DNA of 64,000 nucleotides, taken from UHGV virus genome UHGV-1363143; one strand, given 5' to 3'. The DNA is from a virus. Under the pieces are notes generated by a model. The model searched no databases, had not been told where the DNA came from, and saw nothing but the letters and a program-made list of their open reading frames with translations. The position numbers and the translations under genes were made by a program. Shown here piece by piece: positions 9,104 to 57,312 of this stretch (positions are counted from its first letter, which is position 1; each line of letters begins with the position of its first letter).

Positions 9104-9104
9104 C

Positions 9105-18232: not shown

Positions 18233-18314
18233 ATAGAAAAAGTTGTCCTCTATTAGTAGTTATAATGGATTTCATAACATAATATATATTAGATTATAAC
18301 TTAGGAGTGATATT

Positions 18315-18554
18315 ATGATTAGTTATGAAAACATAATGTTAGAAAAAGAACAAGAATTTGAACAACTTACTGCTCATGCAAAAGAAAAAGAAAATATTCA
18401 CAATGAAGAGATGGCTCAAATTCAAGAAGAATTATTAAGAATTCAAGGCGAGTATAGAATGCTTGCTAAATTAAAGGAGCAATCTGAAGCAGCAGAAACT
18501 GAAGCAGTAGAAAATACTGATACAGAAGATGCGAAAATTATAGAAGCAGAATAA
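18315..18554 (+). CDS. Small acidic coiled-coil protein (79 aa).
   Basis: It has an RBS (TAGGAGTG) and is E/Q/K-rich. A terminator follows. Confidence 0.35.
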   Translation: MISYENIMLEKEQEFEQLTAHAKEKENIHNEEMAQIQEELLRIQGEYRMLAKLKEQSEAAETEAVENTDTEDAKIIEAE

Positions 18555-18647: not shown

Positions 18648-21600
18648 GTGAGATCTCGTATTAATGTATTTGAGCACAATAAAAAAATTGAAAATAGAAT
18701 AAAATCAAGAGAAGCCATAGTCAAAGAAGAGTTCGGTGGCAAAAGCGGAGAGGCTTTAGTTGAAGAAGTTAATAAGAGAATGGCTATGGCATATATAATG
18801 GACAATGATTTTAAAAAGAAATATATAGAGTTCGGAAAAGACTCTGTTATATTAGGATCAAAATATGTAGATGACGCTGTTAATAAATATGCTCCTATAA
18901 ATGGCATTAAACAAACTTATGATGATATAAGACCTATGTTTAATTTTGTTAACAATATAAGCAATCATCTTAAATCAAAACAGACAGGTAATGAGCTTAT
19001 ACTTAATGCTATAGAATTAAACAATGGAATGAACTACAGTAAGATTTCCACTAAAGCAAATATGTCAGTAACTTCATTAAATAAGGCATATGATAATTTT
19101 AAAAAATCTGAAGAGTTCTTTGTATTTGACACTGAAACATTATCAGGTATGGGCAAAACAGGATATAACGAACTAGATAGATTACAAGAAATAGCATTCC
19201 GTAAGTTTAAAAAGGTTGATGGAAAGCTAGTAGAAGATGAAGCTTCAAGGGTGGAAACACTTATAGGAATAACTCAAAAGCAATACGATGAATATATGGA
19301 TATCTTCGTAAATAACTTTAATGAAAATGGATGGCAAGGAAATCAAAAGTACGAAGTAATCGCAGGAAGATTTGCAAAGCTTGGACATAAAGATACTGTT
19401 ATTAAAAATGCTGGTAAAGGATTAGCTATAACAGAAAGTTTTGCTAGTGATGCTAGTGAGAACTTAATGGATGTAAGCAATATTAAACGAGGGCTTGAAA
19501 GAGCTCTAGAAATAGGAAAAAGACAAGATGCTGAAAGACTATCTAATGGCTTAATGGTATGGGAAGATCAGTTATTAAGAAGTGTAAAAATATTTAATGA
19601 AAACTTTGTAGCTGGATTTAATAGTACAAACTTTGACTTTGAAAAGATGAATCAATCTATTGGTACTGTATGGAACAGTATGAATTCAACTCAAAAAGCA
19701 GAGTATAGCAAAATATTAAATCTTAAAAACGGAACAGTTCCTGTAATCAATCCTATTGAAGGAAATTATTTAGACTTTAGAGATGTTGTTAGAACTGCTG
19801 CTGAATCAATAGGTAAAACAGGCATCTATGGTAATGATAATGAAAAACTTAAAACAATTAAAGGTATAGGGAAGACATTATTACAACAAGAATCTCTTGG
19901 TGAAGTATTTGCTAAAGATGCAATGTTCACAGCAGCTCATACAGCAGGTGCCGACGTTACAACGTTAGCTCACCTTATGGGAGGCAAGGAATTAAACGGA
20001 GCTTCTTTATTTGATGAATTAATGACTACAATAAATAAGAATGCTTCAGCCTTAACAGGAAAAGTAGATTACAATTCTGTATTAATGGCCACTCAAGGAG
20101 AGTTTTTCAATGACTTTACTAGAAAGGGTGCTCTTAACTTTACAACAGATAGATCTAGTGGTGCGATAAGGACGTTCAATGGAATGTCACTAGATGCAAA
20201 TGGAGATGTTAGAGATTTAGGTAAATTCGGTAAAGCGACAGGATTAAAGAAAAATGTAGCTTATAAGATTGGATTTATGGGCGAAATGGATATGTCTGAA
20301 GACTGGATTAAAAAGATGTCAGGTATACACCAAGACTACGCACAAGGAAAGTTGTGGGTTGCGAAATTTAATCCATTAATAGATAAAACAATAGCTGGAG
20401 ATAATTCTATTTTAGAAGATCCTACTACATATTTCTTTACTTCTAAAGAAGCAATGGAGGGATTTGTATCAAGCCATTTTGCACATGTAGGTAATATAGG
20501 CACTGATGGTAAAATAGAAGATTTAGCTGATCCTGCAGCTAGAGCTGAGGTTCAAAAGCTATTTGGAGTTCATACAATCAAAGATGGAAAAGTTAGTGAA
20601 GCCGCAACACAAACAGCTAGTGAATTAGTATCCAATGGAACTATACAAGCAATGAATGATCCAGCTGCTAGAATGATAAGAGAAAATGAATACACAAAAG
20701 CTATAAAGTTTCAGAGAATGCAAGATTACCTAAAAAAGAATGGTGCTACAACTATTGATGAACAAAAGAAGATGTTATCTTTAGCAACTGCAGAGAATGT
20801 TGCTGGAGGAAAAACATTAAAGATTAAACATGATGTTTTATCAATATTAGGATTCCAAGATAAAGAGGTTAATAAGCAAGTCCTATATTCAAGTACTTTA
20901 AATAATACTATTAATAGTTATGGATATATGGCTTCAAAAAGAAATGTTATAGATTCTCTTGTTGAAGCTGTTAAGGAATATGGAAATATAGGCTCAGAAC
21001 AGCAACAGTTTATATATGATTCATTAATGAGAGGGTTAAGAGAAGATGCAGCTAATGCTATAGCTTCAGGAGATTTAGAGAAAGAAGCACTAATCAATGG
21101 TTCAAGTGAACTAAAGGTATATGCAAAGGACCTAGATTATTTTGAATTTGATATGCCAGAGGGCTACTTTAAAAACACTAATGCAAAAGCTATGCCTGGA
21201 GAAATAGATAATGTACTAAGGGTTAATCTTAAGTCAGAAAAAGAATATTCTCTAGTCAATGATTTATTAAGAAGACGTAGAGGAAATGATGATAGGCTTA
21301 AATCTCCTAATGCAAGACAAGCATATGGAATGCAAGAACTTAGAAATTTTGCTAATACAGTAAACTCATTAGAAGAGTATAAAGGAATATTTGATGATAT
21401 CTTATATGGCAAGCCAGTTAATGAACTTAAGAATTTAGCTAATTTAAAGAAGTATGAAAAGAGTTTATTAAAAGATGAATTGTATTCTTCATTTGATAAT
21501 GTAGTTAATAATATAGTTAACAATAATGAAGAAGTTATTGAATCAAGAGCTTCTTTAGAACAACTTAGAAAAAGAAGGATAGAACTTCAAAACTTTATAA

Positions 21601-24600
21601 ATGAAAATAACGGAAAAAGAAATTCATTAAGACCTGAACTTGAAGTTCTAAGTAATGAATTTAAAAATACTATATTACCAGATGATCAGTGGCAATCATT
21701 ACTTCCAGATGATAAGAGAATAATTAAAGAAAAGCAAAAAGACATAATGCTTAAACAGAAGGAATTACTTTCAACATTTGATAATAGTGATTTATTTACT
21801 GAACTTAGTGAAATTGAAAGTAACATGGAAGAACAATACAACCATCTATTTAATGTATTGGATATCTCAAGATCAAATGCAAAAACTTCTTTAAAAGAAA
21901 TGTTTTCAACAAAAATTAATAATAAAAATAAAGAGATTGATGAAGTATTCAATAAGTTAAATGAAGTTATCTCTACTGTTCCAATTGAAGCTGATATAAG
22001 TGTTGATGCTATGTCAGAAAAGCTTATTCAAGCAATGAAAAACTTTAGAGAAAATAATCCTTCTTCAGGTTTTTCAAAAGACAGAGTAATACAAAATGTC
22101 TTAGATAGTGATGAATTACTATCAACACTTGATGATGATTTTGTAAAGAAGTCTATTGAAAATACTAAGAGCAATTTGCCTAATCTAAAGCTTATTGATG
22201 TAAACAATAAAAATGAAGTTAAGTCATATGCAGAAGAGATCGTAGATAGCATATTAATGCCTACAGTAAAGGACTCGGATGGAAATTTACTTAAGAATAT
22301 AGATGATATAGCAACATTCGCTCAAAAAACATATGGCTACAATGAAACTACAACTAAGCTATTTAAATATAATCTTCAAATGCAAAGAGAAGAACATGTC
22401 AAAGGTATCTCTGATCTTGTAACAGCAGTTGGAAGAAAAAATGGATTTATAACTTATGATAAGTCAACCTCTGAATTGGGAATGAGAATAGGTGGCGAAA
22501 CATATAACCTATGGGGTATGCCTAAGACTAGAATTGAAAATGGTACTTTATTTATTGCGAATGGACAAGGCAATTTTGCTTCAGGATTTAAACTGGATGT
22601 TCAAGATGCAATAGATGGTAAGAGACTTAATCGAGGCAAGGTTGCAATAAAATCTGATTTAGCAGATTCATACAAGGAATTAAGATCCCTTAATTATAGG
22701 TTAGATAGAGCTGCTGCTAGAGGAGATGATTTAGGTAAAACTGTTATTGGTGCAGTTAGCAACGTAGCAAGTAAAGTAAGAGAATTATCTGCTTTAGGTT
22801 CAATGACAACTAAAGATTCATATGCATGGCAAGGAATGGATTTAAGCGAAGGTATTTTGTCAATGCCATACATGTTGGATGAGATTAAATCATATGACGG
22901 TTGGCAAGACGACGATTTTATAAAAATCTTAGAAAGAAATAAGAATAGGATACTTAATGGGAATATAACTTCAGAAGTTCAAGAAGCATATGCTAAAAAT
23001 AAACAAGATGTAGTAAAAATGCTTTTAGGTATTGGTGCAGGAAATGAAAATAAGCAAAGAACTGTTCAAGAGTTTATTGCAGGTAATATAAGCAATTATA
23101 CTAAGGATGGGAAACTAGCTGTAGGTAGAGCAATGGTAGGAGAATATTCTCCAATGGCTATGACAGAATGGGACAATCCATCACGTCCACCAATAAGTTC
23201 TGCTGATGAAATTTTGTTCAACAAAAAGAAATTAGATGATATAATCAATGATCCTACAAAAGGATTGAAAGGTAGAATAGAAACTGGCTCTAGAATAGTT
23301 TCTACTAGACAAGGTGCTGGAAGAAAATTTGATGGAATAGGCGAAGTGGCAACTGGAGTTACATTTAAAAATGCTAATATTTCAGAAAAGAAATTCAAGG
23401 AAATTATAAGTGATAAGTTCGAAGAAGAACTAGAAAAAGTAAATCCTAACTCTAGTAGAGCGGAATGGCTAGAATCACTTAGAAGACAAATGAGCGGACT
23501 TAACTTGACTGAACAAGGTAAGCTTATTGATGGTAGAGTTGCAGATGCTTTATTATCTGAAACAGAAACGCAAAGAATTAATACATTTAAGAATTTTAGT
23601 AGAGACATGAAAAACAATACTAAAATTATGAACGATAGAATAAAAAAGGCAATGCCTACTATAGAGATTGCTCAGTCAGGAGAAATTGTATTCAAGCTTG
23701 GTAAGAAGGATTACGTAAAACGTGGCGACGCATTATTTGCTATAGATGGATATGGAGATGTTCTTGATACTATAGGAGTAAAAGAAGACGCTGGATTATT
23801 TGGGTTTGGATATAATTCTAAGGGAAGTAATCTTGCAGTTGGAGAAGATGAAATATCTAAACTTCTTAACAAGAATAAGAATAGAATACTAAATGCAGAT
23901 GGAACAATAAATCAAGATAAGGCTATGCGATTATTAAATGAATCTTTTGATAGTGGATTCTATGTAAAGAATGCGTTTGTAAAAGGATACAATAAGGGTA
24001 CAATCGAGTATGCTGAAAAAGGTATGTACGATGCATTGGTATCTGGAGCAGGTACTTTAGATAACAGAGTTGATAAGTTACTTGAAGCTGTCGGTATGAA
24101 AGAAGCTAGTGGTAAGGTTTTAAGTGAAGATTTTATAGATTTAATAGCTGAAAAATATTCTGGATTGACCGCAAAACAAAGAAGTGATTTAGGCTTTGCA
24201 GGTGGTTGGAACCAAGTTAAAAATGCTATTAATAAAGAAAAGTTTGCTAAAACTGACTTCATTAGAGAGATAGATGCATTTAAAGATATAGTTGCATTTA
24301 CTAATGACAATGTAATTAAACATGGTAATGCAGGTATCGCAATGAAAGGACTTATTAATAACATTACTGAAAAGTATATGATTGATGATAAGTTATCATT
24401 TGAAGAAGCTTCCAAGAAAACTGTTGATATACTAAACAAGGAAATTATTATAGATAAAAGTACTGGTGAAAAAGGCAAAATATTTAATGGAGTAGATATT
24501 TCTTTTAAAGACGGTAAGATTCATATTGGTGAAATAAAAGATACACTGAATGCAACTATAGACAAATACGCAGTACAAGCTTTAACTGATGAACTAGGGT

Positions 24601-27530
24601 TATACGATAAGAATAGTCCATTTGCTATTCGTGATAAAAATGGAAATGTAGTTGGATACACAACTACTTTAACTACTTCATTTAATGAAGACTTCTCTGG
24701 AACTTCTAGATCATCAATAGAAAAAGATAAAATAAAGAAAAACTTAGATAACAAAAAGGAAAAGTTAAGGGCATTAAATCCTGAAACTGATTCAGTTAGT
24801 TACAATGCTTTAAATGAGGAAATTAAAAACTTAGAGCATTCATATAGGGCTGCTAAGAACTATGATAAAACAATGACAATATCATCAAGAGAAACTGACA
24901 TGATGAGCCTATATGAATATGATGAAAGTAAAATGGCGAAGGTCAGAGAAAAGCTTGGTGGCGATTATAACAAAATATATAAGAGAATGTTAGATGAAGA
25001 TGGTCGTATTAATTCAGAATACACTGGCAGAGCAATACACCAAGGGTTCCTTGATGACATAGAAGACAAGGCATTTGAACAAGCTGTTGAGAATAAAAAA
25101 TATTTTGACAGTGCAAAAAATGCTATAACATACAATAATAGACCAGGACTAGGTACAGACTTCATAAAAGATAATAACTTTGAAGAAGTTAAAATAGGCG
25201 ATTTAGTAATTCCAAATGGACATGACACAAAGTTCCTTGAATCGGATCCAAACAGATCATTTGGAAGAAACTTATTGGTAGACACAGGGCTTTCAGGAAA
25301 TGATAGATATGTAGCAATTTCTGCTAACAACTATTCAATAACTGGAGACGATGTAAATACAGATGAAGTTCAAAAATCTTTAGCCAAATTACAAAGAGCT
25401 AGTAAAACTCTTGAAGATGGAAGAAAGGGAATTAATGGTGCATTAGATAATGGCACTACTGTTAAAGATCTAGAAGCAAGAGTTAGAAATGCAGCTGATG
25501 AATTAAAAGAATCTGTAGTTGGTTCTATGAGAAAAACTCTTGGTGGACTTGATTCAGTTCAACTTGGAGGATATTCATATGAAAAAGCTACTATGGCTAT
25601 GCTGGATCCAGATAGTCTAAAGAAAGCTATGGAAAATGGTAACTTCGATAAGAAAGCCTGGAATGGATATAAAATGTATGGAGTCTCTAAGATTAATGGA
25701 AAGACTCTTGGTGAATGGGCAAGCCAAGGAGTTCACTATGATGCATCATGGCATGGTAAACAATATTTTAAAGACCTAGGATACTTTGATAAAGCTGTAT
25801 GGAAAGATAAGTATAAAATGAAGTCTGTAGACGAAATGATAGAATATCTTAGGGTTAATGGTACAGCAGGAATAGAACTGCGTACACCTACGATTAAAGA
25901 AGGTTCTATGTCTGTTACAAGACAATATCTTGACACAGATTTAAAGGATGGTCAGGCTAAAGCTACAGCCTCTCTTGTTTTTGGAAGAAATCAGGACCAT
26001 GATGGAGATAGTGTTATACAAGCTGAATTAAGACATAAAGACTGGACATTAGCAGACTATGAAATAGGAATGAAAAATAACCCTAATAATGTTCCTGAAG
26101 ATGTAAAAAAATACTATGAAGAATTAAATGCTGCCCAAACATATAGAGCTAGTACAATAAACAATAAGATATATGAAAACGTAGCAGTTCCAACATACAA
26201 TGACGATGTAAAAAATGCATTAAAAAACGCAAATGTTAACAAAGTACTTGCAAGTGAAAAAGTAAACCTTAATGGACGATATATTACTCCATTCTCTCAG
26301 GCTGAAACAGATACAGCATTAAGAAATGATTATCTTAAAAAGTATGGAGAAATAGAAGAGTCATTAATCAGTAAACTAGGAAAAGAGAAATACAAATCTC
26401 TTAATGTTATAGAAAGAGCAAAAGAAATAGATACTCATATTGCTGGTTTAGCTGATGACGTTAAAGATGGATATAGAACTGCAGCTAGATTCGTCGAAAT
26501 TTATGAAAAAGATATGTCAGCAGTAATGTCTAAAGTAGCTGGTAAAGCTTCTATCGGATATATTAATACACCACTAGCCTCATTAAGAAGGGCAGCAGCA
26601 GTAGAAGGATTTTCTGGAGATCAACGTAAGTATATCCAAGCAGCAGCAGATATACTAGAACAAAATATCATATCTAAGAAGCATAGTACAGATTATGCTA
26701 TATCTTTAGCTCAGACTTTTAGATCTAGTCTTAATGATATGTTTGAAGGGAAAATATCTGGTGCTAATAATGTAAATAGGTTGATAAGAGAAAATTATTC
26801 TGGAGCTATGGTAGAAAAGCTTAAAATATTTAATGATATTGACTTTTCAGGAGTAGATGATGAAGAAATCCTAAATAGAATAACTTCAACTATATCAGAT
26901 GTTGGTAGAGCAGCTAGTAATAATAGTAATTTTAGAAACATCATAAAAGCAGAGAACGCTAAAAATTCACTAACAGCAAGCAATATGGAAGATGTATTAT
27001 CAGGAATATCTGAAAGAAGTACAGGACATAACAAATCTCTCGCAAGAGCTAAATACAATGGAGGATCTACATCATCAGTAAATGCTTCAATTGATATGGA
27101 TGGCTTTGAATCTTCGGCAAAGAAAGTCATTTCATCTGCTTCTGAAGTTATAGATGATATGGCTAGAAGTGTAGGCGGTAGTGGATTAGCAAAAGCTGCC
27201 TTAGGTATAGCTGGAGCAATTATGGCTGCAGGTTATATTGGAGGTAATCCAACAATAGCACCTGGAACAGAAGCTCAAGATTTAGATAGTTATGATTCCC
27301 TACAAGACAAGGACTTATCTATACAACAACTCCCTCAGGGAACTGGACAAGGATATGTAATAAACATTAATGCTCAAAGTGCTAGAGGCCAAGATCATGC
27401 AATTAAAGCAATTCAACAAGCTATGCAATCAAGTGTGACTACTGATATTAATATAGCTATGAATGTAAATGATAAGACAAACACTATAAATAGTAGATAT
27501 ATAGACAAACTATTGTCTGGTGCAATATAG
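18648..27530 (+). CDS. Giant virion or ejected-protein candidate (2960 aa). It has an N-terminal DEDDh 3'-5' exonuclease-like domain and a C-terminal multisubunit-RNAP beta-prime-like double-psi beta-barrel catalytic motif. It starts at a GTG with a GAGGTG RBS.
   Basis: The Exo I-like motif is FVFDTETLSG (about nt 19120). The Exo II-like motif is AGFNSTNFDFEKM. The Exo III-like motif is AAHTAGADVTTLAHL (about nt 19930). At about nt 25870..26010, ELRTPTIKEG...LKDGQAKATASLVFGRNQDHDGDSV aligns with E. coli beta-prime NRAPTLHRL...[26 protein letters not shown], including the spacing. Confidence 0.55.
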   Translation: MRSRINVFEHNKKIENRIKSREAIVKEEFGGKSGEALVEEVNKRMAMAYIMDNDFKKKYIEFGKDSVILGSKYVDDAVNKYAPINGIKQTYDDIRPMFNFVNNISNHLKSKQTGNELILNAIELNNGMNYSKISTKANMSVTSLNKAYDNFKKSEEFFVFDTETLSGMGKTGYNELDRLQEIAFRKFKKVDGKLVEDEASRVETLIGITQKQYDEYMDIFVNNFNENGWQGNQKYEVIAGRFAKLGHKDTVIKNAGKGLAITESFASDASENLMDVSNIKRGLERALEIGKRQDAERLSNGLMVWEDQLLRSVKIFNENFVAGFNSTNFDFEKMNQSIGTVWNSMNSTQKAEYSKILNLKNGTVPVINPIEGNYLDFRDVVRTAAESIGKTGIYGNDNEKLKTIKGIGKTLLQQESLGEVFAKDAMFTAAHTAGADVTTLAHLMGGKELNGASLFDELMTTINKNASALTGKVDYNSVLMATQGEFFNDFTRKGALNFTTDRSSGAIRTFNGMSLDANGDVRDLGKFGKATGLKKNVAYKIGFMGEMDMSEDWIKKMSGIHQDYAQGKLWVAKFNPLIDKTIAGDNSILEDPTTYFFTSKEAMEGFVSSHFAHVGNIGTDGKIEDLADPAARAEVQKLFGVHTIKDGKVSEAATQTASELVSNGTIQAMNDPAARMIRENEYTKAIKFQRMQDYLKKNGATTIDEQKKMLSLATAENVAGGKTLKIKHDVLSILGFQDKEVNKQVLYSSTLNNTINSYGYMASKRNVIDSLVEAVKEYGNIGSEQQQFIYDSLMRGLREDAANAIASGDLEKEALINGSSELKVYAKDLDYFEFDMPEGYFKNTNAKAMPGEIDNVLRVNLKSEKEYSLVNDLLRRRRGNDDRLKSPNARQAYGMQELRNFANTVNSLEEYKGIFDDILYGKPVNELKNLANLKKYEKSLLKDELYSSFDNVVNNIVNNNEEVIESRASLEQLRKRRIELQNFINENNGKRNSLRPELEVLSNEFKNTILPDDQWQSLLPDDKRIIKEKQKDIMLKQKELLSTFDNSDLFTELSEIESNMEEQYNHLFNVLDISRSNAKTSLKEMFSTKINNKNKEIDEVFNKLNEVISTVPIEADISVDAMSEKLIQAMKNFRENNPSSGFSKDRVIQNVLDSDELLSTLDDDFVKKSIENTKSNLPNLKLIDVNNKNEVKSYAEEIVDSILMPTVKDSDGNLLKNIDDIATFAQKTYGYNETTTKLFKYNLQMQREEHVKGISDLVTAVGRKNGFITYDKSTSELGMRIGGETYNLWGMPKTRIENGTLFIANGQGNFASGFKLDVQDAIDGKRLNRGKVAIKSDLADSYKELRSLNYRLDRAAARGDDLGKTVIGAVSNVASKVRELSALGSMTTKDSYAWQGMDLSEGILSMPYMLDEIKSYDGWQDDDFIKILERNKNRILNGNITSEVQEAYAKNKQDVVKMLLGIGAGNENKQRTVQEFIAGNISNYTKDGKLAVGRAMVGEYSPMAMTEWDNPSRPPISSADEILFNKKKLDDIINDPTKGLKGRIETGSRIVSTRQGAGRKFDGIGEVATGVTFKNANISEKKFKEIISDKFEEELEKVNPNSSRAEWLESLRRQMSGLNLTEQGKLIDGRVADALLSETETQRINTFKNFSRDMKNNTKIMNDRIKKAMPTIEIAQSGEIVFKLGKKDYVKRGDALFAIDGYGDVLDTIGVKEDAGLFGFGYNSKGSNLAVGEDEISKLLNKNKNRILNADGTINQDKAMRLLNESFDSGFYVKNAFVKGYNKGTIEYAEKGMYDALVSGAGTLDNRVDKLLEAVGMKEASGKVLSEDFIDLIAEKYSGLTAKQRSDLGFAGGWNQVKNAINKEKFAKTDFIREIDAFKDIVAFTNDNVIKHGNAGIAMKGLINNITEKYMIDDKLSFEEASKKTVDILNKEIIIDKSTGEKGKIFNGVDISFKDGKIHIGEIKDTLNATIDKYAVQALTDELGLYDKNSPFAIRDKNGNVVGYTTTLTTSFNEDFSGTSRSSIEKDKIKKNLDNKKEKLRALNPETDSVSYNALNEEIKNLEHSYRAAKNYDKTMTISSRETDMMSLYEYDESKMAKVREKLGGDYNKIYKRMLDEDGRINSEYTGRAIHQGFLDDIEDKAFEQAVENKKYFDSAKNAITYNNRPGLGTDFIKDNNFEEVKIGDLVIPNGHDTKFLESDPNRSFGRNLLVDTGLSGNDRYVAISANNYSITGDDVNTDEVQKSLAKLQRASKTLEDGRKGINGALDNGTTVKDLEARVRNAADELKESVVGSMRKTLGGLDSVQLGGYSYEKATMAMLDPDSLKKAMENGNFDKKAWNGYKMYGVSKINGKTLGEWASQGVHYDASWHGKQYFKDLGYFDKAVWKDKYKMKSVDEMIEYLRVNGTAGIELRTPTIKEGSMSVTRQYLDTDLKDGQAKATASLVFGRNQDHDGDSVIQAELRHKDWTLADYEIGMKNNPNNVPEDVKKYYEELNAAQTYRASTINNKIYENVAVPTYNDDVKNALKNANVNKVLASEKVNLNGRYITPFSQAETDTALRNDYLKKYGEIEESLISKLGKEKYKSLNVIERAKEIDTHIAGLADDVKDGYRTAARFVEIYEKDMSAVMSKVAGKASIGYINTPLASLRRAAAVEGFSGDQRKYIQAAADILEQNIISKKHSTDYAISLAQTFRSSLNDMFEGKISGANNVNRLIRENYSGAMVEKLKIFNDIDFSGVDDEEILNRITSTISDVGRAASNNSNFRNIIKAENAKNSLTASNMEDVLSGISERSTGHNKSLARAKYNGGSTSSVNASIDMDGFESSAKKVISSASEVIDDMARSVGGSGLAKAALGIAGAIMAAGYIGGNPTIAPGTEAQDLDSYDSLQDKDLSIQQLPQGTGQGYVININAQSARGQDHAIKAIQQAMQSSVTTDINIAMNVNDKTNTINSRYIDKLLSGAI
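19100..20000 (+). other. DEDDh (DnaQ/RNase T-like) exonuclease motif set inside the 2960-aa protein.
   Basis: It has the D-x-E motif, a second Asp motif and H-x4-D with T-A/L context. The order and spacing are consistent with the family. Confidence 0.55.
25870..26040 (+). other. Beta-prime-like DPBB NADFDGD-type metal-binding motif (NQDHDGD) with an upstream R-x-P-T element.
   Basis: The motif is read directly from the translation. It has 5/7 identity to NADFDGD plus conserved flanking elements at the correct distance. Confidence 0.6.
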
Positions 27531-27539
27531 AATTTTTGA

Positions 27540-27569
27540 AGAGTAACTAATAAAAAGTTACTCTTTTTG
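27540..27569 (+). terminator. Rho-independent terminator between the two giant genes.
   Basis: The stem is AGAGTAACT / AGTTACTCT, followed by TTTTT. Confidence 0.6.
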
Positions 27570-27671: not shown

Positions 27672-30600
27672 ATGGCGAAATTTTACAGTTCAGTTGATGA
27701 AAAGTTTTATAAGACACCTGATATGGGCGATTATTATGATGAAGATTTAATAGAAGAAATGATGACAAGTATAGATCCTAATAATCCTAAGAATGCAACG
27801 TATTATGTAGAAACACCTTTTAGTACTGCGTTAGGATATCACCCAGATTATGAGGCTTTTGTATTAAAAGCAGATGCCATAATTAAAAAGAATGATTACA
27901 AATATGGCGGAACTACTGGGGCAGAAAAAGAATATTTAAATGATATTGATGCAGATACTATATCTTTCTATCTAGATTCAGTGGATGATGGAGGAATGCC
28001 TTTTGAATTGAACGGAGAAAAATATAAAGGCTTCAAAGATTATGTATATAACCAGACTGATTTTATAACATTCAAACAAAAAGTTTTTAAGATAAGAACT
28101 ATAGGAATAAATGCTCCTGAAGTACCTCACTATAAAATAGTCCCTATGTCAGATGAAGATGCTAAAACTAAACTTAAAGAGGTTAGCATTTCTGAAATGA
28201 AAAGGGGAGGGTATATATATGAAATAAATAAACCTAGAACTCAGGAAAAATATCCTTTTATTTTTATAGACAATAAATGGAGAGAAGTAGTCAATGGCAG
28301 AAATGTAGACGGAACATATGGATCAAGACAACACCCATTTAAAGATTCTGAAGAATATGATGGTGCAAGTAAGAATGAAGATGATAAATCTAGATATTAC
28401 ACTTGCTTATTAAAAGATGAACAAAGTACTTTAGATATGAATGGAGATGTAAACTTAGGACTACTTGCTACAAGAGAAGCACTTGATTTACTTGAATCAG
28501 CACAAGATATGAGAATAGTAGTCGATGCAAAGCAATTACAAACATCTGCTAATTATTCAGAGATACAAAAAGTATTAATGGAAGGATGGAGCGAAGATAA
28601 TTCTCTATGGGAAGTTATAAAGGCTATGTATATAAAGACTTTTGGTGAAAGTAAAACTACTGTTAAGTATGGTGGATTTGGTACTTTCGGACAAGACTCC
28701 TATAAACGTTTCCTTGGTGCAATATATGTAAAGGCTGCAATTAATGGTGCTCCTACTGCATGGATAAACTTAGCTAAGTATGTTAGGTCCAAAGTAGGGG
28801 ATAGAGTCCAATTAATGAAAGGATTAGATCCAGTATCTCAAGACAATGGAAATGGAGTTTCAGATGCATTTAAAGTATGGTCTTATGATAACTCAAATAT
28901 GCTTATTGCAGATGGATTCTATAATATCAGTCAAGCTGATTTTGATGATAGAAGGCAAATTCAAAGAGAAATTACAGGATTAGATTTTTCCCAATATAGA
29001 GACTATACAGTTATGATAGGTGACTGTTTATTTATGGTACCACCAACGTCAATAAGAGTTGTAAACCAAGTTGATAGTAATAGAGTACCCCTTTTAAGAA
29101 GTAAGGGCTCAATAACAAAAACTAAGCCACATAACGATAGATTGATAGAAATGACATTATACTTCAATGGAGAAGAAGGTATCAATGGAGTTCCTATTAA
29201 AAAGCAACTACCAAAACAAAAAGGAACTAATCAATATGAAACTTATTATATGAATGGTCTTAGAAGTTTAATAGCTATGTTTAGATATACTCCATTTATG
29301 CCAGTAGAAAATAAGTACTTAAATGATGTTCTTGGAATAGAAGCAGTATCTCTTGCTAATCTACAAATACAAACAATGCCAATGTATCCAAAATGTTTGG
29401 CGGTCACTTTAACTCTTCAACAATTCAATTACAGAATATATCTTAATGAATTACCATTACCTGATCCTGAAGAAGGACAAGACTTCAATTATAACATGTA
29501 TGCTAGAACTATCAATTACGGAATAATGAGATATTACTATCAAAGAGCAATTCAAGCAGGGGAAGCTATTAAAGATTTAAGTACTAGCAGTCAAGAGTAT
29601 ATTGAATCAACTATGGGAAGTAAAACAAAATTAATCCCTATGGAATTCAAGGATCAAAACATAAGATTCCAAATTCTTGATTCTAATTGGTTAGATAAAA
29701 TGAAATCAATTAAAGAACTTGCTACTAAACAACCTATACAGCAGACACAAGCATTAAATCAAAAAACACTTGATTGGGCCAATAGAGTCGGCATAAGTAT
29801 GTATCACATTATAAATGCTGTAAATAACATTGAAGCTTGTGCATCACCATCATTCAATAGTCTTGAAAATCCTATATTATGGTTGCAAGAAAAACTACTA
29901 ACAAACCAAACTTGTCCTCATTTGGTTGAGATTGGCAAAGGTGTGGAATCTGGTGAAGGAATATATGATTTTAGCTTTGTATTTGATACAGATTCATTGA
30001 CTAAAGAAGAATTACAAAATCTAATGATAGCAATTACTAATGAATTAAATATAAAGAAAAATGATGCAGATAGACTTATATTTGAGGACGGCATTATAAC
30101 TATAAGTGCTAAATTATCTAAGGACGTTCATACAGATGGAGAAACAGATTACAAATGTGACACAAGCACAGATGACTATGCAGTAGCACAATTCTTTGCA
30201 TTTAGGTCAGGCATGTTTAACGAAGGGGAACTGTCTGATGATATCAATAATGATAATTGGGATGGATTTTCTACTGTAGTGAATGAAGCATTCTTTGAAA
30301 ATATGAAAGATAATGCTATAGATGAAGAATCTTTATTGAGTGCAAAATTCAAGGATTATCCTTTAGATATTATTGTTCAACAATTTAGTATCTCAATGGG
30401 AAATACCTTATCGAATACTAAACTTAAGATACATGAAGGTTATGCTCCACAATATGCAGGGGGACAAGATACTGTATTAGACTTTGTATTTCACACTACA
30501 GATGAGAGCACAGTAACACTACTTAACAATATGCAACAAATGGCTGCTGAACAATTAATAAAATATAGACAAATAATTAATTGTTGGCCAATTAGAATAG

Positions 30601-33600
30601 ATTCGGAAATGACTAGACTTTGTGGCATTCATGAAGTAGTTATAGAATCCGTAGATATTTCTACAGTACCAATGCAACCAGGACTATTTGCAATACAATG
30701 TAGAGCAATATCTGTAGATAGAACTATGAGAAATAGAGAAGCATTAAGAAGAATAGATGCCATGAATAATGCAGGTGCAATTAATCCAGAAGCAATGAGT
30801 TCTTGGGTATATAAGACTTATTTTGATTTAAATAAAACTTTATCAAAAGCAGAAGTATATCCAGATTTAGAATTACCTACAATAGATGAATTAGAAAGCA
30901 CAGGTTATAAATTTATAAGATATGTAAGAAACAGAGAAATGAGAACATATCCAGATCCTGATTTCTATTTTGTGTATGGATATGCGTATTCATCTCAAAT
31001 GTTAAGAAAATCAATTATAGAATATTTTGACAAGCAAATTACGAATGATAAAGGAGAGGCTAGAGCTGTAATTACTCAAGCTAAAACTTCATATGTTCAA
31101 AGCGGAACCAGTCAAGAAACACTTGCTTCCATGAATGATAATGATCCTGATAATGTAATTTATTATGACCATCAAAATAAAGAATTAGAAGGAAAATATA
31201 ATGAAGCTGTAAAAAAAGATATTGAATATATAAACAGTACAAGACAGCAGTCTACAGAGGAAGATCAAAAATATGAAGAAAAAATAAGAGCAGCAGAAGA
31301 ACTGTATAATCAGAGCACATATTTTGAAGATCAACTTATGGCACTAAGTCCTAAAAGCTGGGATATATGTTCATCTATTAAATGTACTTTACCTGAAACA
31401 CTTCCTGATGGAGAAGAAGGAACATTAGAAGCCAATATTAAAAAGGACTTAAAAGATGTGAGCTCTAAAATAATTGAAATTATAGATGAAGCCCTTAGTA
31501 AACCTATAGACGCTACTGAGTATTCGAACTCATCAATACGTGTAGGATATGATTATCATAAAACTCTTAGAAAAGAAGTCAAGAAATTTGTTGAGAATGA
31601 AACAGAAAAAAACTCAGTATGGCAAAAAATAATATCTGAATTTGGAACTTCAATAGACTCAAAAACTAAGAAAAACATAAGAGCAATATATGAGGCAGCA
31701 GCAATGGCTCTTAGTGGAAACTCTGAATTTTCAAAAGATATGAATAAAGATAACTACTGTGCAAGAGCTTATTTCTTTAATAACAATGTAGACACTAATT
31801 ACTCAACTGCAGAAGATGACTATACTTCAAATAAAATTAAATGGTTTCCAAATAGTATAATTATAGATAAAAATACAGGAGATATATTTAACGCAAATAA
31901 TATAGATAATGCTATAGCAAATGGAATAACATTTGGACCTTATCAAGTAAGAAAGTATGATGCCGAGTTTTTAAAAGATTTTTATTCAGATAAATCAATT
32001 ACTTTTTCTGATATGGATTTCTTAGATCCTTATTACAACAAGGCATTACACAAAGATAAATTTGGAAAAGATATAGATAATGATGAATATGTAGAATATA
32101 AATCAAAAATGATTAATTCAACTGGTTATGCTATAGAAGCATTCCATAGAGTAGTGTTGGCATGGGTAAAAAAATTAATCCAAGACAACATCTATATCAG
32201 TTTTTATGATATTAGAAGAGATGATATCTCTAAAGAGTTGAATGGATTAATTGAAGAAGTAACAGGCGAATCAGCATACAATAATGTTGGTTATTTACCT
32301 GGAGATTATACTCAATCAGCTAATTCAACAAACTATTCCGCTTACAATATTCAAGAATATCAAAAGATAGAAAAAGAAAAAAAAGTAAATAAAATAGTCC
32401 AACCTTTAACTGATAAAGGTAAGGATGTAGCAGATATAGTTAAAACATATGAAGGATCAATATTGACTGGAAAGATATTCTTACCTGTTCTATGTGCTGT
32501 AATTCATGGAGATGATATGATTTATGGAAGAATAAAACAAAAGGATATTGGAACATTAAAAGTCAAAACTCGTCAATGTAGTTTACCTTTTAATGCCTCA
32601 GATGAAGTTTCAGATGGAGAAAGAAATTTCAGAAAAATGATTAGAGGTCTATCAGCAACTGATCCTGAGGTAATGAATGGACTAGAAGCAATAGCTAGTG
32701 AAAGCTACACTAAGCTAGAATCTGCATTGATAGACAGAAATCAAAAGCTATGGCTAAAAGCTTCAGAAGATCCTTCAGCATGGGTGTTACATTCATTCTA
32801 TGACATGGTTACAAAAAATAAAAGAGGAAGAATGGCTAGAGCATTCCCTACTTATTATATGATGCTAATAGATGAAGGAAGAGAAATAGGATACTGGAAA
32901 CTTCATGATAACTTCTATAATATGAATTCTATTGCAGAGATAGAAGTTACTAAGTCAAGAAAAATGCCAGCAGATACAGCTAATATAGTAATGACAAATA
33001 TGTTTAAAACTTTCTCTACTGAGGATGAAGATGTAAGAGTGAATTATGAACATAACGTAAGAGATGTATTTAATAGTATCTTCTCTCCTAATGTTTATTT
33101 TGAAGAAGAAGAAGCTAAGAGAATGGCTCAAATGAATATTCATAGAGCAACTATTAAACCAGGAGTAAGAATTCATTTAAGAATGGGATACTCAGGAGAT
33201 GCGTCAGAGTTACCTATATTGTTTAATGGTGTTGTTACAGAAGCAAGCACTGGAGAACTTATAGAAATCACAGCTCAAAGCGACGGACATGAAATAGTTA
33301 ATTCTCAAGTTTTTGCTGGCACAACTGCTGAAGATGCTGCAGACATAAAAAATGAATCTTCAATGTTTAAATGGTTTTATAACTTCTTTACTGAAGGTGC
33401 TACACCAAAGACATTAATAAGAAACATATTTACTGCTAAGAGTGGTTTCTGGGGCAAGATGGCTAATAAGTTTACTAATGGTAGATTCTTTAATGATAAT
33501 ATGTTTGGAATAACTCACTTTGGAGAAATAGACTATAAAGCTATTCACAAGGATGGAGAAATAATGCAAAACATATACGAGGCTGAAGGAAGAATGCCTT

Positions 33601-36359
33601 GGCAAAAAGAACCTACACCAGGATCAATGATGGATGAACATGTTATGGCTGAAGCTCCATCATTCACAATAGAGCTTAAAGATAAAAGTGTTTGGGATGT
33701 ATTAAATATATGTGCCAGCTCATCATTAGAGTTTATAACTGGAGTAGCTCCATTTGGAATAAGAAGCACTATATTTTATGGAAGACCACATTATTACTAT
33801 GCATATGATTATGCAATATCCGAAGAAGGAATGATTACTGAAAAACGTAAGCCATTCCAACAATATCATATCATTGATAGTTATTCAGATATTATAGGAA
33901 ATAACATAAAGGCTTCAGGTGCGGATATAAAAACTGTAGCAGTACCGATGTATAAAGGTCCTGGAAAAGCAAATAAAATTATAGAAAAGAAATGTAATCC
34001 AATATGGGCGGATTGGGATATATATCCTGAATTCCAAAAAACTATGGTAGTCAACACAGGACTTACTTGGAAAGCAAACAAAATGGGAGCCTTACTTGTC
34101 AATAAATTTAGAGATGAAGTTACAAAGAGCGGTGGTCAAAAGATTGCTTGGAGAATGGGAGCAACAGCTCTTAAAAATTCATTTAAAGATATGTATCAAG
34201 GAGAAGTCATAATAATTGGAGATACCAGCATAAAACCTTTGGATAAAGTTTTCTTACACGATGTTTACGAAAACATGAATGGAGCTGTAGAAGTAGAGGC
34301 AGTAGTCCATAGATTGAGTCCTGAGACAGGATTTACTTCATCAGTATTCGCAGACTGTATTAGTTGTGTAGACAGTAGATATGAAGAAATAGGAAGAATG
34401 TGGACATCTCAAATTGCGCACCAAATAGTTCTGGCTAAGAGTATATTCTATTTAAGTAGTTTGGCATTTGGGAATAGCACTAGACCAATGTTGAATGTAA
34501 TGGCTAGGACTGTCAACAAAGGTGCTTACAAAACAGCAGAAATGGCTAATAAAGCTATGGAGTTCATAGGAAAAGATGAATTGATTAAATACGGAAGTAT
34601 GGAAAAATGGTCAGATGCATTTTATAGTACAATGAATCTTTCATCTCAGGAAGTTGCTGTATGGAATAAAGTTAGCCAGCTCGGAGGAATTAAAAAGAAA
34701 ATATCAGTATTAGATATAAATAATATAGATTCAGCCTCAGATATTATTGATAACCTTGGAAACATAGTAAAAGCAACCGATGGATTTAGTCCTTCAGATG
34801 TAGCTGATACATTAGAAACTGCCTTAAAGAATGGATCTATCAAAAAGAAAGATATTAGTAATGTAGAGGCAACTATAAAAACATTAAGAGAAATAAAAAT
34901 AGATACTGATGGATTAACATCAAGTATTAAGCACTTATCATCATCAGTAGTTTCACAATTAGAATCGGTATCAGGTTTAGCGGATGAAGCTAAAGATAGC
35001 CTTAGGTATTTAAAAAGTATTCAGAACATGGAAAAAATAGATATTAAAAAGGCAATGGAATCCCTAGATAGTGTTAAAGATCTAGTTGATTTAAAGGATG
35101 ATATAAAGCAGTCTGCAAAGATAATAGGAGAATATGGTGACGATGTATTAAAAGCTATATCAAAAGCAGACGATATAGTCAAAGGTTCCAAGGTAGCCTC
35201 AGCTGTTACTGCTACCGTAACAACAGCTGGTGTAATATCTTCAGCATTATTAATAGCTGCTGAAATGGCTATAACATATGTCATAGAAAAAAATATATAC
35301 AACTGGATTGAAAACAGAATGGCTAGTTTTAATGTACTGACTGTTTACCCTCTTAAAAAGAATGGAGTAGTTCATGTAGCTGGCATAGATGGCCATAAGG
35401 GATTAGTTCATGGAAGTCCAACTTGGGAACAAGCCGGTCCTATTGATTCATTCATTAACTGGGTGTTTAAAGAAAGAGACACTAAATTCTATAAATTCTT
35501 AGATATATTTGTGTTTTCTGACGAAATGAAAGCTATTGCTGAAACTTATAAGAAAGATAATAAGTTGGGAAGTTATGCAGATGAAAAAGAGCAAACAGTA
35601 ACAGGATTATTAAAAAGCATAGCAGAAGGACAAGCAAGTTCTTATTCAAATTACAAAGCTATGGTTCATACGGAACGTATTACAGATATAAATGCTGCTA
35701 ATGCAAAATACACATATAAGAAAACCAGAGTAAAGTCTGATATATTAAATGATATACCTAATCACCCAGCAGTATTAAATGAGTTAGTTCCTATTGATGG
35801 AAGTAATGAGGCATTAGCTGAATATTTCTCTCCATTAAAAAGTCCTAGATTAAAAACTATACATTTGAGTCATACAGAATATGAGGGTGATTTAGACAAC
35901 AAGATTAGTTACGAAGAATTCAAAATAGATAATATTAAGAGTTACAATGGTGTAATTAGAGGAATTAGACTTTCAGATAACACAGTAGATATTCCATTCT
36001 TAAGACCTGATGCTTTTCAATTATTTAAAAGATTAATAGATCTTATAACAATAAAATCAGGTAATAAGGGATATGGAGATAACGAAAATAGTACAATCTG
36101 GTTCAAGTCAGGTACTATAGTTAATGATAACTCTTGGAGTTCAACTGGATATGTATTTAGGTTTGAAGTTACGAATATCAGTGATGATATAGTAAACCAA
36201 GCATTTGAGGATGCAGCTAAAGAACTTAGAGAAATATTTATTGATGAAAATAAACAAGACATTATAAACATATTCCAATATAGAAAAGTTAAAAATAGCA
36301 ATGCATACGAAGTGTTTGTATGCCCTAGAGATGAATACTTTAAACTACAATTAGATTAA
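27672..36359 (+). CDS. Second giant protein (2895 aa). It has an N-terminal SNase/thermonuclease-like domain, and a C-terminal coiled-coil plus hydrophobic helix.
   Basis: An AAGGGAGTG RBS precedes it. IDADT...FKIRTIGINAPEV...EALDLLESAQDMRIVVD...FLGAIYVKA...WINLAKYVRSKVG parallels staphylococcal nuclease IDGDT...FRLLLVDTPE...KIEVEFD...GLAYIY...ALVRQGLAKVAY. The C-terminal region (about nt 34700..35300) is a long coiled-coil followed by VASAVTATVTTAGVISSALLIAAEMAITYVI. Confidence 0.5.
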   Translation: MAKFYSSVDEKFYKTPDMGDYYDEDLIEEMMTSIDPNNPKNATYYVETPFSTALGYHPDYEAFVLKADAIIKKNDYKYGGTTGAEKEYLNDIDADTISFYLDSVDDGGMPFELNGEKYKGFKDYVYNQTDFITFKQKVFKIRTIGINAPEVPHYKIVPMSDEDAKTKLKEVSISEMKRGGYIYEINKPRTQEKYPFIFIDNKWREVVNGRNVDGTYGSRQHPFKDSEEYDGASKNEDDKSRYYTCLLKDEQSTLDMNGDVNLGLLATREALDLLESAQDMRIVVDAKQLQTSANYSEIQKVLMEGWSEDNSLWEVIKAMYIKTFGESKTTVKYGGFGTFGQDSYKRFLGAIYVKAAINGAPTAWINLAKYVRSKVGDRVQLMKGLDPVSQDNGNGVSDAFKVWSYDNSNMLIADGFYNISQADFDDRRQIQREITGLDFSQYRDYTVMIGDCLFMVPPTSIRVVNQVDSNRVPLLRSKGSITKTKPHNDRLIEMTLYFNGEEGINGVPIKKQLPKQKGTNQYETYYMNGLRSLIAMFRYTPFMPVENKYLNDVLGIEAVSLANLQIQTMPMYPKCLAVTLTLQQFNYRIYLNELPLPDPEEGQDFNYNMYARTINYGIMRYYYQRAIQAGEAIKDLSTSSQEYIESTMGSKTKLIPMEFKDQNIRFQILDSNWLDKMKSIKELATKQPIQQTQALNQKTLDWANRVGISMYHIINAVNNIEACASPSFNSLENPILWLQEKLLTNQTCPHLVEIGKGVESGEGIYDFSFVFDTDSLTKEELQNLMIAITNELNIKKNDADRLIFEDGIITISAKLSKDVHTDGETDYKCDTSTDDYAVAQFFAFRSGMFNEGELSDDINNDNWDGFSTVVNEAFFENMKDNAIDEESLLSAKFKDYPLDIIVQQFSISMGNTLSNTKLKIHEGYAPQYAGGQDTVLDFVFHTTDESTVTLLNNMQQMAAEQLIKYRQIINCWPIRIDSEMTRLCGIHEVVIESVDISTVPMQPGLFAIQCRAISVDRTMRNREALRRIDAMNNAGAINPEAMSSWVYKTYFDLNKTLSKAEVYPDLELPTIDELESTGYKFIRYVRNREMRTYPDPDFYFVYGYAYSSQMLRKSIIEYFDKQITNDKGEARAVITQAKTSYVQSGTSQETLASMNDNDPDNVIYYDHQNKELEGKYNEAVKKDIEYINSTRQQSTEEDQKYEEKIRAAEELYNQSTYFEDQLMALSPKSWDICSSIKCTLPETLPDGEEGTLEANIKKDLKDVSSKIIEIIDEALSKPIDATEYSNSSIRVGYDYHKTLRKEVKKFVENETEKNSVWQKIISEFGTSIDSKTKKNIRAIYEAAAMALSGNSEFSKDMNKDNYCARAYFFNNNVDTNYSTAEDDYTSNKIKWFPNSIIIDKNTGDIFNANNIDNAIANGITFGPYQVRKYDAEFLKDFYSDKSITFSDMDFLDPYYNKALHKDKFGKDIDNDEYVEYKSKMINSTGYAIEAFHRVVLAWVKKLIQDNIYISFYDIRRDDISKELNGLIEEVTGESAYNNVGYLPGDYTQSANSTNYSAYNIQEYQKIEKEKKVNKIVQPLTDKGKDVADIVKTYEGSILTGKIFLPVLCAVIHGDDMIYGRIKQKDIGTLKVKTRQCSLPFNASDEVSDGERNFRKMIRGLSATDPEVMNGLEAIASESYTKLESALIDRNQKLWLKASEDPSAWVLHSFYDMVTKNKRGRMARAFPTYYMMLIDEGREIGYWKLHDNFYNMNSIAEIEVTKSRKMPADTANIVMTNMFKTFSTEDEDVRVNYEHNVRDVFNSIFSPNVYFEEEEAKRMAQMNIHRATIKPGVRIHLRMGYSGDASELPILFNGVVTEASTGELIEITAQSDGHEIVNSQVFAGTTAEDAADIKNESSMFKWFYNFFTEGATPKTLIRNIFTAKSGFWGKMANKFTNGRFFNDNMFGITHFGEIDYKAIHKDGEIMQNIYEAEGRMPWQKEPTPGSMMDEHVMAEAPSFTIELKDKSVWDVLNICASSSLEFITGVAPFGIRSTIFYGRPHYYYAYDYAISEEGMITEKRKPFQQYHIIDSYSDIIGNNIKASGADIKTVAVPMYKGPGKANKIIEKKCNPIWADWDIYPEFQKTMVVNTGLTWKANKMGALLVNKFRDEVTKSGGQKIAWRMGATALKNSFKDMYQGEVIIIGDTSIKPLDKVFLHDVYENMNGAVEVEAVVHRLSPETGFTSSVFADCISCVDSRYEEIGRMWTSQIAHQIVLAKSIFYLSSLAFGNSTRPMLNVMARTVNKGAYKTAEMANKAMEFIGKDELIKYGSMEKWSDAFYSTMNLSSQEVAVWNKVSQLGGIKKKISVLDINNIDSASDIIDNLGNIVKATDGFSPSDVADTLETALKNGSIKKKDISNVEATIKTLREIKIDTDGLTSSIKHLSSSVVSQLESVSGLADEAKDSLRYLKSIQNMEKIDIKKAMESLDSVKDLVDLKDDIKQSAKIIGEYGDDVLKAISKADDIVKGSKVASAVTATVTTAGVISSALLIAAEMAITYVIEKNIYNWIENRMASFNVLTVYPLKKNGVVHVAGIDGHKGLVHGSPTWEQAGPIDSFINWVFKERDTKFYKFLDIFVFSDEMKAIAETYKKDNKLGSYADEKEQTVTGLLKSIAEGQASSYSNYKAMVHTERITDINAANAKYTYKKTRVKSDILNDIPNHPAVLNELVPIDGSNEALAEYFSPLKSPRLKTIHLSHTEYEGDLDNKISYEEFKIDNIKSYNGVIRGIRLSDNTVDIPFLRPDAFQLFKRLIDLITIKSGNKGYGDNENSTIWFKSGTIVNDNSWSSTGYVFRFEVTNISDDIVNQAFEDAAKELREIFIDENKQDIINIFQYRKVKNSNAYEVFVCPRDEYFKLQLD
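27930..28810 (+). other. SNase-like nuclease domain. The Ca-site Asp is replaced by Asn (GINAPE instead of GIDAPE/VDTPE).
   Basis: The motif alignment is as given above, read directly from the translation. Confidence 0.5.
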
Positions 36360-36372: not shown

Positions 36373-36738
36373 ATGTCAGATTTTAGACATAAACTGCGTA
36401 AGGAAGTAGTAGATCCTGCTCTGAAAACGAGCAGGAAAGCTACACTTATAGCAGTAATTACAGATAAAAAAAGTAATTCATATACAATCCAATTTACAGA
36501 TGAAAATGGTGAGAAGCAAAAACAGTCAGGTATCTCTGCAAGAAGATATGGTAACGAAACTCCTCAAGGATATGAAATTAATGAAACTGTATTAGTAGAG
36601 TATGATGATACTGATAAAAAATATGAAATCATTTCAAGTTACGGAAGGGACTACGCCGAAGTTAAAGCAACAACTGAATTAAAGACTGACATATTTAGTA
36701 ATTTAATATCTAGTACTATTCCAGGATATCAATTTTAG
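36373..36738 (+). CDS. Hypothetical small baseplate-region protein (121 aa).
   Basis: It has a strong RBS (TAAGGAGGAAG). It sits between the giant genes and the baseplate genes. Confidence 0.4.
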   Translation: MSDFRHKLRKEVVDPALKTSRKATLIAVITDKKSNSYTIQFTDENGEKQKQSGISARRYGNETPQGYEINETVLVEYDDTDKKYEIISSYGRDYAEVKATTELKTDIFSNLISSTIPGYQF

Positions 36739-37837: not shown

Positions 37838-37840
37838 CTA

Positions 37841-57311: not shown

Positions 57312-57312
57312 T

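Follow-up and report, generated by a model that had tools for sequence, protein, structure and literature searches.

Here we analyze a stretch of 64,000 nucleotides from the virus genome UHGV-1363143 (the window), which carries the contractile-tail module of a low-GC (~31%) jumbo myovirus, with emphasis on one giant open reading frame (ORF) of 2,895 amino acids (aa). Homology and gene position identify this ORF, 27672-36359, as the baseplate hub protein of a contractile-tail, low-GC jumbo phage of the 0305phi8-36 lineage. Its residues ~86-380 belong, as a genuine but divergent member, to the superfamily of staphylococcal nuclease (SNase; OB-fold), a conclusion for which a predicted structure and transitive homology are the two lines of support. 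We hold the hub identity and the SNase fold together to be close to certain. On the question of function, our preferred reading is that this N-terminal head is a tail-tip phosphodiesterase that would act extracellularly on nucleic acid, to which we assign a probability of about 0.55. The parts of the gene and its neighbors are listed in Table 1.

Table 1. Features of the hub gene and of the surrounding tail module (window coordinates)
Feature	Position	Strand	Basis or remark
Baseplate hub gene, 2,895 aa	27672..36359	+	homologue of 0305phi8-36 gp147 and Moorella phage MTATph1 CDS0032
N-terminal extension, conserved, aa 1-85	27672..27926	+	near-invariant G55 and motif LPDMGDFY...GY; alignment column counts
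SNase-fold domain, aa 86-380, core split by two insertions	27927..28811	+	
D93-A-D95-T96 (SNase D19-G20-D21-T22)	27948..27959	+	family columns; hhalign register vs MTATph1 DGDT
R142-TIGI-N147-A-P-E150 (SNase R35-LLLV-D40-T41-P42-E43)	28095..28121	+	hhalign and family columns
Insertion 1, aa ~155-258, beta-rich subdomain	28134..28445	+	replaces short loop after E43 of SNase; model secondary structure, partly low pLDDT
Helix 1 and strand MRIVVD, aa 262-285 (SNase helix 1 and KIEVEFD)	28455..28526	+	
Insertion 2, aa ~286-334, mostly helical, low confidence	28527..28673	+	model and hhalign
G340-QDSYK-R346-FLGAI-Y352-VK (SNase D83-K-Y85-G-R87-GLAYIY)	28689..28733	+	hhalign vs MTATph1 GQDAFGRWLVVAY; family columns
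W364-I-N366-LA-K369-YV, SNase-fold helix 2	28761..28784	+	most conserved motif of the domain
Conserved 'IGD..F.VPPTSI...' module	28983..29810	+	downstream of the enzymatic head in all gp147-type hubs
Hub core, aa ~1704-2585	32781..35426	+	common to gp147 and other Bacillus jumbo phages; PHROG, tblastn, BLASTP
2,960-aa gene in gp146 (tape measure) position	18648..27530	+	synteny; DEDDh-like motifs ~19125-19955
Tail sheath	2504-5539		
Tube paralogues	6362-10268		
Baseplate-wedge matches	37319-38641		
Collagen-repeat fibers	55130-62473		

The hub gene and its SNase-fold head

The hub ORF begins at an ATG with the ribosome-binding site AAGGGAG 8 nt upstream. By BLASTP, the protein aligns in colinear blocks with gp147 of Bacillus phage 0305phi8-36 (E values of 2e-66, 3e-22, and 2e-9) and with CDS0032 of MTATph1 (2e-97, 9e-37, and 9e-20). 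The IGD..PPTSI module lies within these alignments, with aa 438-678 on gp147 aa 249-460 and aa 328-713 on the MTATph1 protein. The hub core matched phrog_20474 in a PHROGs scan (E 1e-170), and tblastn located it in six cultured phages, including 0305phi8-36, where ORF147 is annotated as a 'baseplate hub protein'. The record for gp094 of Bacillus phage WH1 reads 'virion structural protein'. As expected of a gp147-type hub, the gene stands after the gene in tape-measure position and before the baseplate wedge genes, and the gene order of the module agrees with gp141-gp151 of 0305phi8-36, in which gp145 is followed by gp146 (tape measure), gp147 (hub), and baseplate genes. Searches of Pfam and of PDB sequences reported no gp27/gpD-type or other hub family for the protein. 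The same protein is present, without change, on contigs of 0.2-1 Mb, and its N-terminal 476 aa occur at 97% identity on a 241-kb IMG/VR contig.

A short segment of the hub (aa 955-1016; within window positions 29100-32700) gave a weak Pfam match to DUF6046 that stayed below threshold (21.2 bits; cutoff, 27.4) and that recurs in 4 of 20 family members. The surrounding aa ~900-1100 form a BLASTP block conserved with gp147 and MTATph1.

A sequence-only reading of this DNA had placed an SNase/thermonuclease-like domain at 27930-28810. These bounds bracket the domain correctly, and the strings it quoted are all present in the quoted order: IDADT (aa 92-96), FKIRTIGINAPEV (aa 139-151), EALDLLESAQDMRIVVD (aa 269-285), FLGAIYVKA (aa 347-355), and WINLAKYVRSKVG (aa 364-376). 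The evidence that they belong to an SNase-fold domain comes from a family alignment of 131 relatives sharing <50% identity. Word-indexed searching gave two N-terminal relatives and profiles gave a few more, and the family itself was supplied by an exhaustive search of representatives. In hhalign, the profile of this family matched aa 100-262 of MTATph1 CDS0032 with a probability of 97.9 and an E value of 5e-13 over 126 columns that include all motifs. The MTATph1 head in turn passes the Pfam SNase model (34.1 bits against a cutoff of 21, E 4e-8), its compact domain showing the order NDGDT...VRLWGVNAPEIPH...IVLVID...GQDAFGRWLVVAY...WININK, and gp094 of phage WH1 passes the model as well (29.2 bits). 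Membership in the SNase superfamily (PF00565) is thus reached transitively, through a homologue that crosses the Pfam threshold, which the hub protein itself does not cross.

Comparisons of the family with SNase itself are weaker and agree with this route. The family consensus scored 18.1 bits against Pfam SNase when unedited and 26.6 bits (E 9e-6) once the two insertions had been cut out, and 4 of 20 family members matched the model weakly. An hhalign comparison of the family with SNase placed RLLGIDAPE on FRLLLVDTPE (P 0.004). Between the PE of the GINAPE motif and the YGR motif, family members have a median of 184 aa where SNase has 41, and insertion 1 appears as a gap against the compact MTATph1 domain. 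Structure prediction, which had been named as a check, favors the assignment: the model of aa 55-405 contains the five-stranded OB barrel and three helices of the SNase fold, at moderate confidence. Model helix 205-221 and strand 225-231 (add 54 for protein numbering) are predicted to be SNase helix 1 and the strand that follows, with ARDYLRDLV...IVLVID as the hhalign partner in MTATph1.

Several results weigh against this assignment. The Pfam search proposed in the sequence-only reading found no SNase match at E<=1, and nothing above the 21-bit gathering threshold, for aa 1-476, aa 55-405, or the whole protein, an outcome that taken alone goes against the domain on that reading's own terms. 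For the head, searches of the PDB with phmmer and with hmmsearch (3- and 20-sequence profiles) gave no match, a Foldseek search of the model against the PDB returned antibody noise only and no SNase match, a 3-sequence alignment gave no match to SNase in hhalign, and the PHROGs scan returned nothing for the hub N terminus. In the model, 100 of 351 residues have a predicted local distance difference test score (pLDDT) below 50, and an earlier AF2 model built from the 3-sequence alignment was uninformative (pLDDT 28.7). The removal of the insertions was guided by the hypothesis and is therefore supporting evidence only. We attribute the failure of the direct Pfam search to the insertions, ~140 residues in total, which interrupt the SNase core.

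The family is large and lies outside the collections of cultured phages as far as direct searches go. A profile of the N-terminal ~540 residues, covering the head and the next conserved module, returned at least 334 clusters (50% identity); most of these are proteins 2,600-3,200 residues long encoded by uncultured jumbo phages. A tblastn search of the cultured-phage collection with the N-terminal 476 aa gave no match at E 1e-5 (this search did not cover the plasmid collection), and a scan of bacterial genomes gave no relative. The link to cultured phages was reached through the hub core and then by hidden Markov model and hhalign comparison.

The active site and Asn147

We presume the customary SNase residue numbering and roles, with D21 and D40 as Ca2+ ligands. 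The alignments equate D93/D95 with D19/D21, R142 with R35, N147 with D40, A148 with T41, E150 with E43, Y344 with Y85, and R346 with R87. Residue counts were taken from alignment columns; a regular-expression motif census was stricter than the alignment. Counterparts of the catalytic Arg35, Glu43, and Arg87 are all in place as R142, E150, and R346, and are kept in 99, 93, and 114 of the 131 relatives. In the first motif, D93 and G94 are each found in 110 relatives, D95 in 96, and T96 in 107, and P149 is kept in 97. The G340-Y352 segment keeps both the catalytic Arg and the phosphate-contacting Tyr, with D342 in 96, Y344 in 81, R346 in 114, Y352 in 124, and K354 in 99 relatives. Conservation peaks in helix 2, where W364 (117/131), N366 (129/131), and K369 (131/131) have counterparts in WININK of MTATph1, INMNK of WH1, and VHVNK of KBAB4.

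The canonical Ca2+ site, made of Asp21, Asp40, and the Thr41 carbonyl, is incomplete: D95 is present, with Asn at position 147 and Ala at position 148. The Asn had been pointed out in the sequence-only reading, and its codon, AAT at 28110-28112, is one transition away from Asp. Both replacements count against catalysis, as does the finding that, read by alignment column, 43 of the 131 relatives are missing one or more catalytic residues, which may be partly misalignment or may mean that the domain persists without catalysis for structural reasons. Because it is the backbone of Thr41 that binds, an Ala at this place may be tolerated.

Position 147 is Asp in 55 and Asn in 52 of the 131 relatives, and the five-residue set reads DRDER in 48, DRNER in 40, and otherwise in 43. 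The two states are interspersed, with a nearest neighbor in the other state for 22 of 88 sequences, and no column of the family alignment tracks or compensates for the switch. Among cultured relatives, the residue is Asp in the B. mycoides KBAB4 plasmid pBWB401 and in B. velezensis pAD3, Asn in MTATph1, and Gln in WH1; a 235-kb plasmid-prophage of B. thuringiensis israelensis has Glu. All four side chains are oxygen donors, and Asn and Asp interchange as Ca2+ ligands elsewhere, for example in EF-hand loops. Against the 97%-identical IMG/VR relative, the ratio of nonsynonymous to synonymous polymorphism (pN/pS) is 0.05 in the SNase-like domain, 0.07 in the hub core, and 0.16-0.18 in the middle and C-terminal parts. 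The SNase-like domain is under strong purifying selection. Together with the interspersed states and the otherwise intact catalytic positions, this ratio indicates that Asn147 is a recurrent, tolerated variant of a maintained site rather than a sign of decay. The earlier suggestion of either a non-canonical metal site or a degenerate binding module therefore survives in its first half; a degenerate domain was rejected on the pN/pS value and the kept catalytic residues. This natural D/N (E/Q) polymorphism at a single Ca2+-ligand position, with the rest intact, offers a series for probing how the metal site tunes activity.

The head could instead be a non-catalytic structural or binding module that has lost nuclease activity, like the SN domains of Tudor-SN and of extended Tudor domains, and whose OB fold serves the hub as a scaffold or adhesin, in the manner of the OB-fold domain in T4 gp5. 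The altered Ca2+ site would suit such a module. We regard it as unlikely, though as deserving serious weight, given that the equivalents of R35, E43, R87, D21, and Y85 rank with the best-conserved columns in a family sharing <50% identity, whereas scaffold-only SN domains lose these residues. Moreover, position 147 is almost wholly D or N in the family, and cultured relatives have D, E, N, or Q there, each a metal-ligand side chain. These observations favor the phosphodiesterase reading, with catalytic competence, as judged from the retained residues, rated slightly better than even.

The N-terminal slot, the upstream giant gene, and the tail module

Compared across homologues, the SNase domain occupies a swappable N-terminal head slot of the hub family. 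In gp147, the slot holds an SLT-type transglycosylase and a Gly-rich linker ahead of the shared IGD..PPTSI module, and a Paenibacillus plasmid-prophage homologue begins at the PPTSI module with no head. The records of other homologues on plasmid-prophages read 'lysozyme family', 'glucosaminidase domain-containing', or 'nuclease'. An SNase head is present in the 235-kb B. thuringiensis israelensis element, pBWB401, pAD3, phage WH1, and MTATph1; in phage Edson, whose sequence was not read, the match spans the same N-terminal region. The assignment of gp147 as a hub rests on HHsearch analysis, and its C terminus is reported to carry NlpC/P60 and M23 peptidase domains (PMC2147016). An SNase domain on the hub homologue of BtI1 was reported in the same work, which called the utility of the nuclease domain 'obscure' (Hardies, Thomas and Serwer 2007, PMC2147016). 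Domains of this kind on such hubs were thus already known, and what is new here is a large, divergent, insertion-bearing metagenomic branch of them.

The gene upstream of the hub encodes the other giant protein that the sequence-only reading had seen next to it, and that reading took each of the two to be led by a nuclease-family domain. This holds for the hub. In the upstream protein, aa ~160-440 contain motifs like those of DEDDh 3'-5' exonucleases (FDTET..G, GFNSTNFD, and AHTAGAD), and FDxET..G, GxNxxxxD, and HxAxxD stay invariant when the protein is aligned with four relatives that are 19-65% identical to it. Pfam gave no match to an exonuclease domain and the PDB profile search nothing relevant, an hhalign comparison with E. 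coli DnaQ yielded P 0.011, and the motifs are absent from gp146 of 0305phi8-36 and from the MTATph1 proteins at that position. As long as Pfam, PDB, and hhalign lend the motifs no convincing support, the picture of two nuclease-led giants serves as a lead rather than as an established result.

The stop codon of the upstream gene is immediately followed, at 27539-27569, by a terminator-like hairpin (AAGAGTAACT / AGTTACTCTT, then a run of T), which lies ~100 nt before the hub gene; given this hairpin, strict co-transcription of the two giant genes may not hold. Near their C termini, both proteins have hydrophobic segments rich in Ala, Gly, and Ile. In the hub, a long segment at aa ~2505-2535 (window ~35180-35280) looks membrane-spanning or membrane-inserting, and the segment at aa ~2800-2825 of the upstream protein (window ~27045-27125) has a similar membrane-type look.

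Elsewhere in the module, two giant genes lie between the tube paralogues and the hub ORF. Two small ORFs at 17831-18554, between a 2,078-aa gene and the gene in tape-measure position, encode a 133-aa protein with an N-terminal hydrophobic segment and a Glu-rich protein of 79 aa. ORFs 6362-9103 and 9093-10268, sited between the sheath and tail-assembly genes, match phrog_9206, 'major head protein'; this label is probably misleading, because gp141, at the matching place in the 0305phi8-36 module, is a 'tail tube paralog'. The 121-aa ORF at 36373-36738 that follows the hub has no BLASTP similarity to gp148. Four tail-fiber-like genes occupy 53188-62473, of which the first (53188-55062) has a phage tail repeat (PTR) and the three later ones have collagen triple-helix repeats, joined in the last (59975-62473) by phage fiber repeats. 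Pfam found no peptidoglycan hydrolase domain in the window ORFs scanned. All cultured relatives infect Bacillota.

Proposed function and relation to known systems

We propose that the head functions as a metal-dependent phosphodiesterase or, failing that, binds phosphate or nucleic acid. Asn (or Glu or Gln) at position 147 would give the metal an oxygen ligand in place of the Asp40 carboxylate, Asn being neutral. By analogy with the tail lysozyme of T4, the head would be part of the virion, at the tail tip, and would act outside the cytoplasm in adsorption and penetration. The likeliest role, and the one with the simplest substrate, may be to cut nucleic acid coating the host, whether extracellular or associated with its surface. 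Enzymes of the SNase type depend on millimolar Ca2+, and their characterized bacterial members are secreted or surface-bound, which fits an extracellular virion enzyme. Purifying selection together with the kept active-site residues suggests that this is probably a widespread virion enzyme. The choice of extracellular or surface-bound nucleic acid as substrate is tentative and, taken by itself, somewhat doubtful. Three further points count against the proposal: the placement of the N terminus at the virion tail tip is putative and drawn from analogy; we found no experimental study of tail-borne SNase domains in the papers searched, among which PMC2147016 was the only one on the topic; and the verdict of that paper on the nuclease domain was the one quoted above. 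No literature on WH1 or MTATph1 was found.

In another scheme, the N termini of the hub and of the upstream protein would be a pair of nucleases delivered ahead of the genome against host, plasmid, or defense nucleic acids, a scheme to which we give little credence. Two adjacent giant genes both have N-terminal nuclease-like motifs, the hydrophobic segments near both C termini are compatible with membrane insertion, and tape-measure and hub proteins are the first to leave the tail in other phages. The sequence-only reading had gone in this direction, seeing an organized cargo pair to be compared with crAss-like gp47/gp49/gp50-type proteins. The pair is not supported, given the colinearity of the hub with gp147 inside a contractile-tail module and the position of the upstream gene as that of a tape measure, and the comparison found no footing in PHROG and Pfam scans, which give only the hub family, or in a window that encodes a sheath and a baseplate wedge. 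A crAss-like cargo was rejected on the contractile tail and the homologues in Bacillota myoviruses; these scans show no homology to such cargo, and a podovirus tail is not what this module builds. Nor does the DEDDh assignment have statistical support, and the absence of its motifs from gp146 and the MTATph1 counterparts means that the pair is not a conserved unit. The hairpin separates the two genes, the Ca2+ requirement of SNase-type enzymes exceeds cytoplasmic levels, a nuclease entering alongside the genome would endanger it, and in relatives the slot holds cell-wall hydrolases.

A broader version, which we consider improbable, would see in the SNase head, possibly together with the DEDDh-like N terminus upstream, virion-delivered phosphodiesterases in a role new for tailed phages. 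They would clear teichoic acid or extracellular DNA of the matrix at entry, or enter before the genome to destroy host or defense nucleic acids, and D/N/E/Q switching would tune metal affinity, keeping the enzyme silent inside the particle and letting it work only at its target.

Least probable of all is that the head cuts a phosphodiester polymer other than nucleic acid in the Gram-positive envelope, for example wall or lipoteichoic acid, as the equivalent of the peptidoglycan hydrolases in the same slot: relatives place envelope-degrading enzymes there (SLT; lysozyme and glucosaminidase annotations) and are all found on Bacillota when cultured, the scanned window ORFs lack a peptidoglycan hydrolase domain, and the active-site periphery is remodeled by the insertions and the D40 and T41 changes, but the equivalent of the nucleotide-contacting Tyr85 is kept, pBWB401 and WH1 encode separate lysins beside their SNase-bearing hubs, so that the SNase is not simply a lysin substitute, and we know of no SNase-family enzyme that cleaves teichoic acids. 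We therefore retain the tail-tip phosphodiesterase with nucleic acid as its substrate as the preferred reading. Whatever the substrate, the feature extends well beyond the two Bacillus prophages on which it was called obscure in 2007.

Compared with crAss-like gp47/gp49/gp50-type cargo, the hub is alike in size alone, both being very large virion proteins. There is no PHROG or Pfam link between them, the window has a sheath and a baseplate, and the homologues of its hub are in Bacillota jumbo myoviruses. For the fold, the comparison enzyme is staphylococcal nuclease (Nuc, PDB 1sta/1stn; Pfam PF00565). Closer to the window hub is gp147, itself likened to the gp27/gp5 hub-lysozyme complex of T4: the two share three colinear blocks, the same gene neighbors, and an enzymatic domain on the hub. 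They differ in the enzymes carried, SLT, NlpC/P60, and M23 domains in gp147 versus none of these detected by Pfam in the window hub.

The record labels of the hub homologues vary, as does their Ca2+-site residue. The MTATph1 record (L002, 16302-22979) reads 'endolysin' and has N, that of WH1 (L008) reads 'virion structural protein' and has Q, and those of the Bacillus plasmid-prophages (L010 and L011) read 'hypothetical protein' with E and 'nuclease' with D. With a domain that Pfam misses and labels such as 'endolysin' and 'hypothetical', the annotation of jumbo-phage tail modules can be corrected.

The nearest known systems are hubs that already bear an SNase domain. Those of the plasmid-prophages BtI1 (the 235-kb B. 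thuringiensis israelensis element; pBtic235 type) and BwK1 (pBWB401, B. mycoides KBAB4) agree with the window hub in gene position, colinear architecture, and an SNase domain at the N terminus ahead of the IGD..PPTSI module, and RefSeq names the KBAB4 and B. velezensis homologues 'nuclease'. Their SNase domains are compact, with ~50-90 residues from PE to YGR against the family median given above, and a different domain of ~140 residues precedes the SNase core. At the D40 position, they have Asp (KBAB4 and pAD3) or Glu (B. thuringiensis israelensis), in contrast to the Asn of the window protein. MTATph1 CDS0032 and gp094 of vB_BceM_WH1 are likewise hub homologues with an N-terminal SNase domain; they lack the large insertions and are shorter (2,225 and 2,320 aa, respectively), and while WH1 differs at the D40 position, MTATph1 shares the Asn of the window protein in its motif GVNAPE.

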